NCBI GenBank assembly: GCA_031275285.1
Contig: JAISOY010000042.1
Coordinates: forward strand, 29,475 to 93,474
Length of the DNA stretch: 64,000 nt
Reading direction: 5' to 3'
DNA from: Bacteroidales bacterium
GTDB taxonomy: Bacteria; Bacteroidota; Bacteroidia; Bacteroidales; UBA4181
The notes below the pieces were generated by a model that was not told the origin of the DNA, did no database searches, and worked only from the letters and a program-made list of their open reading frames with translations. Positions 15,938 through 29,196 of the stretch are shown here, one piece after another. How positions within the stretch are numbered: position 1 is the stretch's first letter; the number at the start of each line of letters is the position of its first letter. The position numbers and the translations under genes are program-made.

Positions 15938-17293
15938 ATGAAGTTTTCTATTGCGACATTGCTATCTATCCTGTTATCCGGTATCATGTATGGACAACTT
16001 CCGGAACATGAGGCTACCCGTTCTATCAAACAGGAAGCCGGCCGTATAAAAGAGTTGCCGCAGAAAGATGCTGTCCGTTCCATCCAGCAAAGTACCGGTC
16101 GTATGAAGCAATTCACCCGCAAAAATGACCGTCGGACAAAGAAATCCCGTAAACGCATGCAGCGTTACGAAAAACGTTTATCCAAAGATATGGATTCCAT
16201 TCCCGCACCATTAGCCGCCCCAATAGACGTTTCCACAGATGCAGGACTGGGAAATGAGCCCCATCTGGATAACCTGAAAAATGCCTATCAATTCAGCGGA
16301 CAGACCCAGATAGCGCCCCCTTCCCAGGTCCAGGAAGGCCTGTCCGGGATAGATAAGACCAAACAAAGCATCCATGCCTCATCCCAGATGAAAAACCAGT
16401 TACACCAACGTACCGGTAACTGGAAGCAATGCGCCAAGGGCACCGCGCGTAACCAGCGCATCATCAAAAAAATGGAAAAAGAAAGCTATTACTATACCGC
16501 AGAAGTCAATAAATACCGCCAGATCATACGTGACCCCTCCACGCTTGACCAGCAGTTGACCGATGCCCTGAAGCAACACCCCCAGTGGAGCAGTTTCATG
16601 GCCAGTTTACCCGCCAAACCACAGGATCCCGAAAAGATGCAACCCAAAGAGATGATCCGTCAGATGATGCAGAGCCAGGCCGGTTCAATCGACCCCAATG
16701 CCACTCAGCTGATCAAGGATGCCCAGTCCAAAGGAAGTGAACTCTTAGGCACGCTGTCCGGAGGCGAAGGCGGTAACATCGACAATGCCTCCCAGCTCCC
16801 CGGCTTTGTCCCCAACCCCTACAAGACCAAAAGCTTCTGGGAAAGAGTCGATGTAGGGTTCGACCTTCAGTTCAACAAAAACACCTACCATCTTCCCTCG
16901 TCAGGAACCGCCGGCATACAGATCGGTTATCATATCAGCCGGAAGATCAGTACCGGTATTACCGGCAGTTACCGTTTCGGCCTGGGAGAAGACATCCGTC
17001 ACATCCGTTTTTCCCATGCCGGAGCAGGATACGGAGTCTTCTTCAATTATCTCATCAAATGGGGTTTCGGGGTACAGCCCGGCTTCGAACGTAACTGGCG
17101 GTCATCCATAGACACCAAAGACGGTCAACATTTCAAGAGCGCCTGGCGGTCGGCCCTATTGTTAGGCATCACCAAAGAATACCGGATCGGGAAGAAAGCC
17201 AAAGGCAATGTCGCCGTCTTTTACGATTTCCTGCATAAGAGGCAGGTACCGCATAGCAATGCTTTTCTGTGGAAAATGGGATGGAAGTTTTAA
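15938..17293 (+). CDS. hypothetical exported protein: basic repeat-containing N-terminal half and OMP-like C-terminal beta-barrel
   Basis: 451 aa with a signal peptide MKFSIATLLSILLSGIMYGQ. There is a short internal repeat ATRSIKQEAGRIKE / AVRSIQQSTGRMKQ. The C-terminal ~150 aa have alternating-strand character and end ...FLWKMGWKF (terminal aromatic, as in OMPs). Confidence 0.6.
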   Translation: MKFSIATLLSILLSGIMYGQLPEHEATRSIKQEAGRIKELPQKDAVRSIQQSTGRMKQFTRKNDRRTKKSRKRMQRYEKRLSKDMDSIPAPLAAPIDVSTDAGLGNEPHLDNLKNAYQFSGQTQIAPPSQVQEGLSGIDKTKQSIHASSQMKNQLHQRTGNWKQCAKGTARNQRIIKKMEKESYYYTAEVNKYRQIIRDPSTLDQQLTDALKQHPQWSSFMASLPAKPQDPEKMQPKEMIRQMMQSQAGSIDPNATQLIKDAQSKGSELLGTLSGGEGGNIDNASQLPGFVPNPYKTKSFWERVDVGFDLQFNKNTYHLPSSGTAGIQIGYHISRKISTGITGSYRFGLGEDIRHIRFSHAGAGYGVFFNYLIKWGFGVQPGFERNWRSSIDTKDGQHFKSAWRSALLLGITKEYRIGKKAKGNVAVFYDFLHKRQVPHSNAFLWKMGWKF

Positions 17294-17418
17294 TGCCGTG
17301 ACCGGATGTGGAAAAAACAGGAAAAACCGGCCGGGATTATCATCATTTCGGTGAACCATCCGGATCATAAAGAGTATTTGATTGATCAGATGAATTTGGA
17401 GTATATCGTATAATTATA

Positions 17419-17426
17419 TATATTTG
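17419..17426 (+). promoter_or_regulatory. putative -7 box (TATATTTG) upstream of the 982-aa/RHS gene pair
   Basis: The TAnnTTTG match lies 126 nt upstream of ATG 17552, in the 258-nt AT-rich spacer. Confidence 0.3.
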
Positions 17427-17551
17427 TTGGCTTACCGGGTTTACTTATTATTTAGAACTTGAGTTTTTGTGATAGAATGACTAGCGGGATAACATAAATA
17501 ACTATTGGTATAAATGATCCTCCAAAAATTGGATGATAGATAAAATGATAC

Positions 17552-27787: not shown

Positions 27788-27946
27788 ACCGACAGAAAGC
27801 AAAGAATTCCAGTATCTCCGTAACGTGTCTCGTCCTGAAATAGCGTTACGTGACATCTATTTGTAATTTTAAATGAAAATAACTTAGTGAGAACTCACAC
27901 AGGCATTCTCTCGGTAGATGATAAAATCAACAAAAGATCAATAAAA

Positions 27947-28360
27947 ATGAAATATTTGTTATTGTTATTCATAGTATTCATCTGTTATTCCTGTAAATCA
28001 GTCGAGCCAATCAGTAAAAATGAAGAACAGTCATTTTATAAGATAAAGAATATAAAGAAAGAAAAGTTTTATTATATAATAAGTGCTGTAAGAAATGATT
28101 CTTTATTTAAGATTATTCAAGACAGGGATCCATCAGAAATAGGTAATTGTTCAAATATAAAACCTGGGAAAAAATATAAATTAGAATTAAAAATTTTTTT
28201 CCCTCCAGATTCTATATTTGGGATACCGGTTACAGGTGACTATAGTACTCGAGTAAGGAGTGTCGGTTTGAAGGGAATTACTATTAAGATTTCTGAAAGA
28301 TATCATGATAGATTATACCTGGCTAAAAATTTAAAAGGATTATGCATTATAAAAGATTGA
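27947..28360 (+). CDS. small lipoprotein, hypothetical (candidate orphan immunity)
   Basis: The track ORF 27887-28360 starts at GTG. The internal ATG at 27947 gives MKYLLLLFIVFICYSCKS, a clean lipoprotein signal. Confidence 0.5.
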   Translation: MKYLLLLFIVFICYSCKSVEPISKNEEQSFYKIKNIKKEKFYYIISAVRNDSLFKIIQDRDPSEIGNCSNIKPGKKYKLELKIFFPPDSIFGIPVTGDYSTRVRSVGLKGITIKISERYHDRLYLAKNLKGLCIIKD

Positions 28361-28704
28361 AATATCAATTATTTTTAGAATATGGTAATGATTAAAATAA
28401 TATATCATTTCCGATGTCTCTTGTTAAGCGGAACATAAGAGATGAAAGTTAAAGGTAAATATTTTACAGTTCTGAATATAGCCAAATATGTAATTTGGCA
28501 GATGAATATAAAACTCACATACCTATATTGTAAACGAAAAGTATTTAGTTGATCTGTTGTCAGCTAAGTTCGGCATACCGGGTGTCACGGCCACTTCCTC
28601 CTTGCCCGAATCTGGACTGAACTCAGCGGAGTGTTCTCAACCATTGGAGGTAAAATTATTCCAGTGCATTTATTACACAACACTCATAAAAAGAAGAAAT
28701 AGTT

Positions 28705-29196
28705 ATGAAATATTTGACAGGTTTGTTGTTATTGATACAATCATGTTCTATGGAAAATGAAGAATTCATAAAAAAGATTATATCCGATTTTGATAGATAT
28801 AGCTTTTTTGTATCCATAGAGGTTGAAAGTCCTGAATACAGAGGGAGGGTAATTATTGAAAATGACGATTTGTATCACTATTATAATCAAACTCAAAATA
28901 TTGATAAAAAGAAATATCAAGAAATAATGCATAGGATGTTGCAGAAAGAACTAACACTAAAAATTAAAAACGAGGATTTTAATCGATTTAACTTTTTTAA
29001 AGTGCTTAATGATGCAACTATTATTGCCAATACTCAAAAGGGTGTTGATAATTTCATAAAAGTCTATTTTAATGGAAGGGTATTGAAAGATGATATTACA
29101 GATAATGAGCGTTATGCTATTATAAATCAATTGTATCATTTCAATGTTTTAAGTAAAATTGATGATGAAACAGGTTATTTGGTTCTGTATAAATGA
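28705..29196 (+). CDS. small lipoprotein, hypothetical (candidate orphan immunity)
   Basis: 163 aa with MKYLTGLLLLIQSCSMENEEF (lipobox-like ...QSC). It is AT-rich. Confidence 0.5.
   Translation: MKYLTGLLLLIQSCSMENEEFIKKIISDFDRYSFFVSIEVESPEYRGRVIIENDDLYHYYNQTQNIDKKKYQEIMHRMLQKELTLKIKNEDFNRFNFFKVLNDATIIANTQKGVDNFIKVYFNGRVLKDDITDNERYAIINQLYHFNVLSKIDDETGYLVLYK

Follow-up and report, generated by a model that had tools for sequence, protein, structure and literature searches.

The locus described here encodes a polymorphic toxin of the rearrangement hotspot (RHS) type and lies in a stretch of 64,000 nucleotides (nt) from a Bacteroidales genome of the UBA4181 lineage (GenBank assembly GCA_031275285.1, contig JAISOY010000042.1, positions 29,475 to 93,474), which we refer to as the window. 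An original prediction, made from the letters of the window alone, had placed seven plus-strand open reading frames (ORFs) between purA and a gene for an M23 peptidase, and we found all seven and both flanking genes at those positions (Table 1). The three large ORFs encode proteins of 451, 982 and 2017 amino acids (aa), and four small ORFs make up a tail. Over 11 nt (ATGCGCAGTAA, 20490-20500) the end of the 982-aa gene overlaps the beginning of the 2017-aa gene, as had also been predicted. The other sizeable ORFs of the window encode housekeeping proteins or have no assignment.

Table 1. Features of the RHS locus and its flanks (positions in the window; slashes mark predicted cleavage)
Feature	Position	Strand	Details
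purA	14144-15403	-	upstream flank
451-aa ORF	15938-17293	+	
982-aa ORF	17552-20500	+	
2017-aa RHS ORF	20490-26543	+	
Signal peptide of RHS protein	20490-20609	+	aa 1-40, predicted cleavage G40/Q41
Alternative RHS starts	Met10 (20517), Met12 (20523)	+	
Right-handed beta-helix module (DUF1565 / pectate-lyase-like)	20838-21749	+	aa ~117-420
Two tandem ~130-aa domain copies	21750-22553	+	aa 421-688; tblastn self-match 30% identity, direct repeat D2
DUF6443 domain	22554-22979	+	aa 689-830; Pfam PF20041, E 6.8e-42; opens Rhs shell
RHS/YD-repeat shell	22980-25535	+	aa 831-1682; Pfam RHS_repeat and TIGR01643 matches
Rhs-associated core	25536-25790	+	aa 1683-1767; TIGR03696 38.9 bits (cut-off 32.5)
C-terminal toxin domain	25791-26543	+	aa 1768-2017
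Cognate immunity gene, 166-aa lipoprotein	26543-27043	+	lipobox ...NMS-C18; start overlaps RHS stop codon
192-aa signal-peptide ORF	27209-27787	+	G+C 0.30; no homolog in 80 loci
157-aa ORF	27887-28360	+	likely true start Met21 at 27947; lipoprotein MKYLLLLFIVFICYS-C
163-aa lipoprotein-like ORF	28705-29196	+	MKYLTGLLLLIQS-C; G+C 0.26; no homolog in loci
M23 peptidase gene	29661-30932	+	downstream flank

The 2017-aa protein is a member of the Rhs/YD polymorphic toxins, with a repeat shell, an Rhs core that contains a self-cleavage motif, and a hypervariable tip that is followed by a cognate immunity gene. From the N-terminus it consists of a signal peptide, a beta-helix, two repeated domains, DUF6443, RHS repeats, the Rhs core, and the C-terminal toxin. 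DUF6443 was found in the RHS protein of nearly all related loci (see below) and is the domain that defines this family; NCBI routinely labels its members 'DUF6443 domain-containing protein'. The Rhs core ends ...GRWWVPDPLAEQ...NIDPDGM/E, and the motif as we read it, ...PDPLAEQ...NIDPDGM/E, agrees with the DPxG(L/M) pattern of self-cleavage. We predict from this motif that DPxGM/E is an aspartyl autoproteolysis site at which the toxin would be freed. The alignment of the toxin family starts exactly at the invariant Glu after DPDGM.

The beta-helix was recognized by Pfam DUF1565 at aa 127-180 (E 4e-6) and by partial NCBIfam matches to NosD, PelN and PelX. It is an optional module, since among 80 related loci it is common to L002, L003 and L004 only. 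The tandem domain is also present in the RHS proteins of L004, L010, L048, L064, L074, L078 and L080. An Ala/Gly/Ser-rich insertion of ~60 aa (RHS aa ~1540-1599, nt ~25107-25286), modeled with very low confidence, precedes a conserved strand-rich block and the Rhs core. The public call for the RHS gene (P0259, 1982 aa) starts at Met36 (nt 20595) and thus does not include the signal peptide. We favor the upstream start because the signal peptide is conserved among RHS family members, and the start of P0259 is probably a start-codon miscall that arose because the two genes overlap.

The 982-aa protein and the DUF6443-RHS protein are encoded by an almost obligate, co-oriented gene pair across the Bacteroidota. 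The 982-aa family has more than 1000 homologs, all with names or sources that point to Bacteroidota. We scanned one genome per species and found at least 595 loci with the pair, in every major Bacteroidota order and including gut Bacteroides, Prevotella and Alistipes. We fetched 80 of these loci (L001-L080), from Bacteroidales (Bacteroides, Prevotella, Alistipes, Dysgonomonadaceae, Prolixibacteraceae), Chitinophagales, Sphingobacteriales, Cytophagales and Flavobacteriales. Eight more (L081-L088) were reached with 451-aa, RHS or toxin queries, for 88 fetched loci in all. Several pair loci per genome are common, and there is at least one paralogous 982-aa gene (LBQ60_22125) in the metagenome-assembled genome (MAG) that contains the window. 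The locus had been put forward as the best candidate for an undescribed system in the window; it is one ordinary member of a large family and not a unique island.

A co-oriented gene with DUF6443, RHS repeats and the Rhs core was immediately downstream of the 982-aa homolog in 58 of the 80 loci (57 counted by script, plus L061, in which a frameshift splits the 982-aa homolog, counted by hand). The two genes were fused in six others (L011, L012, L015, L017, L020, L037). The remaining loci were cut by a contig end (seven), had an RHS gene upstream only (five), or had no RHS gene (four), so that the RHS gene was downstream or fused in 64 of 73 evaluable loci. In reverse sampling, a 982-aa homolog was immediately upstream in five of five loci, three of them reached through RHS proteins (Sphingobacterium multivorum, Flavobacterium panacagri and Rufibacter quisquiliarum) and two through the toxin domain. 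The original prediction had asked whether the 982-aa protein is always paired with a signal-peptide RHS protein; it was paired with an RHS gene in most loci, but not in all. The gap between the two genes was mostly -46 to +50 nt. Such repeated fusion strongly indicates that the two products function as a single physical unit.

Some of the fetched loci differ in the spacing or apparent origin of the pair. In Algoriphagus and related Cytophagales, a conserved signal-peptide ORF of ~160 aa sits between the two genes (L029, 13155-13634; L046, L061, L065, L071, L075), and several Chitinophagaceae-type loci have a comparable gap of 450-600 nt. Fused genes of the Bacteroidota type were also present in three MAGs labeled Phoenicibacter congonensis / Eggerthellaceae (Actinomycetota; L012, L015, L017). 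The N-terminus from L012 is identical to that from Alistipes sp. CAG:514 (L011), indicating bin contamination or recent transfer.

The predicted folds of the two proteins resemble those of the TcB and TcC subunits of Tc toxins. The AlphaFold2 model of the 982-aa protein had a predicted local distance difference test score (pLDDT) of 83 and a predicted template modeling score (pTM) of 0.83. Its best global matches in Foldseek were TcB chains (4igl_A/C, 5kis_A, 9c4k_P; E ~1e-20), with template modeling scores relative to the query (TMq) of 0.42-0.44, compared to 0.09-0.16 for type VI secretion system (T6SS) Rhs proteins and teneurins and 0.15-0.19 for TcC. The model of RHS aa 689-1767 (pLDDT of 84) matched the TcC chains 4igl_B/D (YenC) with scores relative to the target (TMt) of 0.66-0.67 and TcdB2-TccC3 fusions with TMq of 0.38-0.49 (6h6f_F, root-mean-square deviation [rmsd] of 6.5 A over 905 columns). 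Its scores were 0.13-0.18 against TcB chains (4igl_A, TMq 0.13), 0.11-0.36 (TMq) against most T6SS Rhs entries, and 0.15-0.22 against teneurins. As judged from fold similarity in these models, the RHS protein has what characterizes TcC: an RHS half-shell, an Rhs core, and a hypervariable region. We call the pair a BC-type module because the fold matches are reciprocally specific, the 982-aa protein to TcB and the RHS shell to TcC. The original prediction had set Tc toxins aside for want of TcA; on these matches the pair is better described as a BC-type module without TcA.

At the level of sequence, the 982-aa protein has few recognizable features. It has a conserved N-terminal motif (SPEAAALAKYINYPV...TG...IPLYEI...LSYHASG), and its sole Pfam match is an RHS repeat at aa 941-969, the conserved repeat that forms its C-terminus. 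We considered that it might be a diverged copy of the RHS shell and discarded this idea, as the hhalign probability between the two families was 12% and the match was confined to the C-terminal repeat.

The tip of the RHS protein is a variable toxin with its own immunity gene. The toxin-domain family has 371 representative proteins at E<=1e-3, and most of the matches are short proteins with an Rhs core plus toxin or the C-termini of large proteins. Residues H108, G109 and C153 are invariant in the family alignment (A4) and correspond to His1875-Gly1876 and Cys1920 here, and we predict that the toxin is a Cys/His hydrolase. Pfam did not establish its identity: 17 of 40 family members matched DUF4347 weakly, below threshold, and one member had a Tox-PAAR-like domain. 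The 166-aa lipoprotein gene directly downstream is 28-29% identical, with the lipobox Cys kept, to ORFs directly after RHS genes with the same toxin (L084, 9621-10070; L085, 9437-9892), and we assign it as the cognate immunity gene because it co-varies with the toxin domain.

The rest of the tail appears to consist of orphan immunity genes. We assign the 157-aa ORF as one because a homolog directly follows the RHS gene in L066 (7054-7473) and another follows an Rhs-core cassette in L078. The 192-aa and 163-aa ORFs are probable orphan immunity genes by position only. Thus, of the four small exported or lipoprotein ORFs in the original prediction, the first and third now have a specific assignment and the other two are placed by position. 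We discarded the possibility of orphan toxin cassettes in the tail, as tblastn showed no Rhs-core remnant there. Arrays of orphan Rhs-core-plus-toxin cassettes do follow the main RHS gene in L025, L046, L054, L056, L061, L065, L066 and L078; the window has just the orphan immunity-like ORFs.

The toxins of related loci suggest that the module mainly delivers toxins to the periplasm of target cells. We compared 39 toxin tips and found them to be unalignable (9% mean column identity). About a quarter were recognizable, as ten Pfam families with one tip each (Phage_lysozyme, SLT, Peptidase_M15_4, VanY, DUF5675, Tox-JAB1, DUF4329, Tox-MPTase2, Ntox44, Ntox37), and about three quarters had no Pfam match. 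Approximately half of the recognizable sister toxins are cell-wall (peptidoglycan) enzymes. ORFs in the immunity position started with a signal peptide, a lipobox or a transmembrane segment in 27 of 36 cases, as counted with a crude heuristic. We infer a periplasmic target from the export of the immunity lipoprotein and from the share of peptidoglycan enzymes among the recognizable sister toxins. The presence of cognate and orphan immunity genes, together with sister toxins that attack peptidoglycan, argues for antibacterial use.

Delivery of Rhs cocoons is understood for three routes: T6SS spikes, TcA syringes, and wall or surface anchoring of the WapA and teneurin type. We looked for signs of these and other routes in the proteins and their surroundings. 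All three large proteins start with a signal-peptide-like sequence followed by Gln, with predicted cleavage at G19/Q20 in the 451-aa protein, A24/Q25 in the 982-aa protein and as in Table 1 for the RHS protein. The signal peptide and the Gln after it are conserved in both the 982-aa and RHS families. By their sequence, the signal peptides of these two proteins are of the signal peptidase I type, and the Gln at +1 fits a 'Q-rule' for Bacteroidetes signal-peptidase-I substrates that Bochtler et al. are said to have described in 2018.

There was no linked apparatus for crossing the outer membrane. The annotated ORFs of the 64-kb window included no PAAR, VgrG, Hcp, TcA, type IX secretion system (T9SS) component, integrase or transposase, and there was no DUF1795 (Eag-type chaperone) in the proteins or the window. 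We found no T9SS C-terminal sorting domain (CTD; Por_Secre_tail / TIGR04183 type) in the 451-, 982- or 2017-aa proteins with Pfam and NCBIfam, and no Pfam matches to NHL or FN-plug. No TcA-sized neighbor was conserved in the 88 fetched loci, no PAAR, VgrG, Hcp or T9SS gene recurred across the 80 loci, and clustering of all ORFs in those 80 loci gave no further conserved partner or apparatus gene. A conserved upstream apparatus gene was also rejected, as a Pfam scan of 43 upstream neighbors gave heterogeneous housekeeping genes. These results agree with the original prediction, which had read N-terminal Sec-type signals in both large proteins and a variable toxin rather than a T9SS CTD at the RHS C-terminus, had seen no PAAR, VgrG, Hcp, TcA, integrase or transposase, and had left the export and delivery route unexplained; we found no paper on the route across the outer membranes. 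It had also named two outcomes that would speak for a known system. The pair was not embedded in T6SS or TcA loci in related genomes. Membership in a characterized family with a known route holds in part: the fold class is known, but the route known for it, through TcA, is absent.

Based on these results, we think it probable that the locus encodes an antibacterial polymorphic Rhs toxin that is built as a Sec-exported 'BC' module without TcA. The 982-aa and RHS proteins would be exported by Sec into the periplasm of the producer, where, in the manner of TcB and TcC, they would jointly form a single closed YD-repeat cocoon that encloses the C-terminal toxin after its self-cleavage. Binding to a surface structure would fall to the RHS protein's N-terminal beta-helix and repeated domains, and the toxin, a predicted His/Cys hydrolase, would act in the periplasm of a competing bacterium. 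The means of crossing the outer membranes of producer and target would not be encoded beside the pair, and vesicles, lysis, or display through an unlinked general pathway are candidates for release.

A further possibility, which we hold only tentatively, is that the pair is the core of an undescribed, Bacteroidota-specific mode of delivery, in which a periplasmic cocoon of the TcB/TcC type arrives in the periplasm of competing cells with no need of TcA, a T6SS or a T9SS sorting signal. If true, this would be a new way for an assembly of ~300 kDa (estimated from protein lengths) to cross or leave the outer membrane, and it might involve the 451-aa small-barrel protein, upstream T9SS-secreted tail-fibre-like proteins, or vesicles.

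Several findings weigh against a Sec-exported BC module that works in the periplasm. None of 25 members of the 982-aa family matched SpvB, TcdB_mid or FG-GAP in Pfam, and the family profile matched solved structures through the C-terminal RHS repeats only; with both searches giving RHS repeats only, we dropped a sequence-level tie of the 982-aa protein to TcB/SpvB. The superposition on TcB is moderate (TMq 0.44, rmsd ~21 A) and is based on AlphaFold models, and in hhalign the profiles of the two families are unrelated save for one repeat. The search for apparatus genes next to the pair covered 64 kb of this genome, and a T6SS, T9SS or TcA gene could be distant. About a quarter of the immunity-position ORFs had no export signal, and Zhang et al. 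reportedly class the Ntox44 and Ntox37 families as nucleic-acid-targeting, so delivery only to the periplasm may not hold for the whole family.

The length of the RHS shell raises a different possibility, which we consider unlikely: that the RHS protein closes a cocoon alone, with DUF6443 plugging its N-terminal end in the way known from T6SS Rhs effectors and teneurins. In that case the 982-aa protein would be a partner in its own right, for example a carrier, a factor that crosses the outer membrane or binds a receptor, or another shell with nothing inside. The stretch of DUF6443, repeats and core is as long as a complete T6SS Rhs shell (~1080 aa here, ~890-1000 aa in minimal homologs), so that a second half-shell may not be needed. 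E-values of the RHS model reached 2.5e-22 among shells of the Rhs, Tc and teneurin types, and T6SS Rhs and bacterial teneurin-like proteins (2.5e-22 to 1e-20) scored no worse than Tc proteins. DUF6443 of the fused proteins lies between two shells, a position that has no known counterpart in TcB-TcC (4O9X, 4IGL), and the dissimilarity of the two family profiles described above also fits a lone cocoon. Global superposition, in contrast, favored TcC and TcB-TcC over most T6SS Rhs proteins and over teneurins, and the 982-aa model globally matched TcB and nothing else. On either model, a physical complex is favored by the tight pairing, the start/stop overlap and the repeated occurrence of fusions.

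It is improbable that the pair is exported as cargo by a known Bacteroidota machine with genes at another place in the genome, either the T9SS, perhaps by way of a CTD-bearing partner, or a T6SS-iii. Proteins with a T9SS CTD are encoded directly upstream of 982-aa homologs in L081 (12347-15115) and L087 (1899-3557), and 2 of the 43 upstream neighbors that we scanned had a Por_Secre_tail domain. The toxin-family member with a Tox-PAAR-like domain indicates that the toxin can travel by T6SS in another context, and the window is, again, 64 kb of a genome. However, the three large proteins have no CTD, as the RHS protein ends in the toxin and the 982-aa protein in an RHS repeat, and no PAAR, VgrG, Hcp or T9SS gene recurred with the pair in the 80 loci. 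Loading into a T6SS from the cytoplasm does not fit because the Sec signals are cleavable. The genus Bacteroides reportedly has no T9SS (McBride and Zhu, 2013), and the pair is present in Bacteroides (B. faecis, L056; also L064, L072 and L078), so the T9SS is unlikely to be required.

Other surface-type proteins were also found next to the pair. ORFs resembling LamG or tail-fibre proteins were directly upstream of the 982-aa homolog in 15 of the 80 loci (e.g. L016, 7621-8709); a protein of this or the CTD type is likewise encoded in L084 (964-2529) and L086 (1629-2534). These and the CTD proteins may be a variable surface or receptor-binding third component; neither type is encoded in this window.

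Tc subunits are not known to have Sec signal peptides, which counts against an authentic Tc (ABC) toxin that acts on eukaryotic cells and whose TcA is encoded far from the pair. That explanation is very improbable: the folds do resemble TcB and TcC and orphan tcC genes far from tcA and tcB are known in Photorhabdus (PMC7861908), but there was no conserved TcA-sized neighbor in the fetched loci, the immunity genes and peptidoglycan-attacking sister toxins indicate antibacterial use, Tc subunits are reportedly released by lysis (PMC10847048), and a Tc census assigned 96.4% of TcC proteins to Proteobacteria and 3.2% to Firmicutes with no mention of Bacteroidetes (PMC7861908).

The closest mechanistic analogue of the module is the TcB-TcC cocoon (Photorhabdus TcdB2-TccC3, 4O9X/6H6E; Yersinia entomophaga YenB-YenC, 4IGL). 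Both consist of two adjacent and sometimes fused genes, here with a TcB-like first and a TcC-like second product by predicted fold, and the second product shares with TcC its RHS repeats, a self-cleavage motif in the Rhs core, and a hypervariable toxin at the C-terminus. Unlike TcB-TcC, the module has no TcA near the pair, has Sec signals on both proteins, lacks SpvB or FG-GAP at the sequence level, has the extra DUF6443 and optional beta-helix or repeat modules, appears to be antibacterial with exported immunity proteins, and is found in Bacteroidota.

Secreted TcB-type RHS polymorphic toxins are not new as an idea, since Zhang, de Souza, Anantharaman, Iyer and Aravind listed them in 2012. 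In that study (PMC3482391), whose classes are purely computational, signal-peptide RHS toxins are listed under 'T2SS' (type II secretion system), and a 'TcdB/TcaC' class with signal peptide, SpvB and an integrin-like beta-propeller includes Bacteroidetes; TcdB/TcaC is treated there as an export pathway, a view that predates the cocoon structures. Like both classes, the locus belongs to signal-peptide RHS polymorphic toxins in Bacteroidetes, and tips are shared (Tox-MPTase2, Tox-JAB-1, Tox-JAB-2/DUF4329). In contrast to the 'TcdB/TcaC' class as given there, the 982-aa family has no sequence match to SpvB or the propeller, though its fold is TcB-like. The passages we searched do not describe the split two-gene module, DUF6443 or the 982-aa family. 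Our literature search found no paper that mentions DUF6443 and no study of the module or its route.

Three other groups of toxins share parts of this design. T6SS Rhs effectors (RhsA, 7Q97; Tse5, 8CP6; RhsP, 8H8A; Salmonella bongori Rhs, 8QJB-D) also combine a YD shell and core autoprotease with a polymorphic toxin and its immunity gene, and their composition too changes abruptly at the toxin tip. The module differs from them in its Sec signals, its obligate large partner, the weaker superposition (TMq 0.11-0.36), and the absence of PAAR, VgrG and Eag-chaperone context. Bacterial teneurin-like proteins (9IFO/9PT5; PMC13018210) and the Gram-positive WapA are likewise exported by Sec and have a YD shell, adhesion-type modules at the N-terminus and, at the C-terminus, a polymorphic toxin for which there is an immunity gene. 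The teneurin-like proteins are single polypeptides with an FN-plug and an NHL propeller and are described from six phyla, Bacteroidota not among them (PMC13018210); the module has a two-protein architecture, no NHL or FN-plug match, and TMq of 0.11-0.16 to 9ifo_A. TANFOR-domain toxins (PMC7073777) are also a polymorphic toxin class of Bacteroidetes with an unproven export route. They have another N-terminal domain and no RHS shell, and a T9SS route has been hypothesized for them from neighboring CTD proteins.

We conclude that the locus represents a variant of the Rhs/Tc BC cocoon that is widespread and has apparently not been studied. Should the proposed architecture prove correct, it would provide a testable handle on how very large folded assemblies exit Gram-negative cells, and it would add an antagonism system to gut and soil Bacteroidota along with a large pool of unclassified toxin and immunity domains.

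The 451-aa protein is an accessory rather than a core component. Its homologs adjoin the pair, upstream or downstream, in 10 of the 80 loci only, and also in L081 and L083; the co-occurrence of an OMP-like (outer-membrane protein) gene that the original prediction had asked about is thus limited to a minority. The protein (NCBI LBQ60_04040, 100% identity) has a polar helical region of ~270 aa after the signal peptide, followed by a C-terminal part of ~160 aa with alternating hydrophobic strands that ends ...LWKMGWKF, and both the strand pattern of this part and its aromatic C-terminus are conserved in the family alignment (A7). It has no Pfam or NCBIfam family, and its profile found no related solved structure by sequence. 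We infer from the strand pattern that it could be a small (about 8-stranded) outer-membrane beta-barrel. We discarded it as the translocon, given its presence in 10 of 80 loci, a barrel of ~160 aa that is too small for a conduit, and no related solved structure; it may serve as an anchor in the minority of loci that have it. In L082 (7601-9496), a 451-aa homolog adjoins genes for a conjugative coupling protein (TraG/T4SS-DNA_transf) and an Eco57I-type restriction/helicase protein, which suggests that integrative conjugative elements may carry some copies of the module.

The locus is not a foreign island of 13 kb; its composition is that of an AT-rich toxin tip and immunity tail on a conserved Rhs body, the classic Rhs break. 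The original prediction had described an island of ~58% G+C and a three-way mosaic from single 60-nt lines. The four values are exactly reproducible (0.583, 0.583, 0.40, 0.283), but the two high ones are local peaks that do not represent their genes. The G+C content was 0.504 for the 451-aa gene, 0.434 for the 982-aa gene, 0.466 for the N-terminal part of the RHS gene, 0.513 for the RHS shell and 0.422 for the toxin tip, that is, 43-51% for the large genes compared to 37-50% (0.369-0.495; purA, 0.495) for backbone genes. The region from 15404 to 29660 had an overall G+C content of 0.425 versus 0.410 for the rest of the window. The sole clear departures from the backbone range were the four small ORFs, with G+C of 0.26-0.30 and G+C at third codon positions (GC3) of 0.24-0.31. 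Near the junction of Rhs core and toxin, G+C drops from 0.44-0.45 before ~25,790 to 0.36-0.37 after it, and from the start of the immunity gene (26543) onward it remains at 0.26-0.33. We therefore discarded the G+C island, as the per-gene G+C and GC3 counts deviate in the immunity tail only. A mobile element or genomic island was discarded as well: the large genes are within the backbone range, and we found no tRNA gene, integrase or transposase in the window and no flanking repeats around the locus. The flanking genes are not common to other related loci.

The remaining observations concern the surroundings of the locus. Terminator-like sites were not enriched (11 found versus 13.6 expected), and the consensus used in a sigma-70 promoter scan does not apply to Bacteroidota. 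Rfam had no match inside the locus; its sole match in the window was a bacterial RNase P RNA of class A at 44395-44742 on the plus strand (RF00010, 258.9 bits). Between purA and the 451-aa gene there is a 126-aa ORF with a GTG start (15501-15881, minus strand) that has no family match and may not be a real gene. Beyond the M23 peptidase gene, a 134-aa ORF (31102-31506, plus strand) matches just the last ~60 positions of the WbsX glycosyltransferase profile. It is directly followed by a full-length WbsX gene (31581-32771, plus strand) and resembles a partial duplicate or pseudogene remnant.

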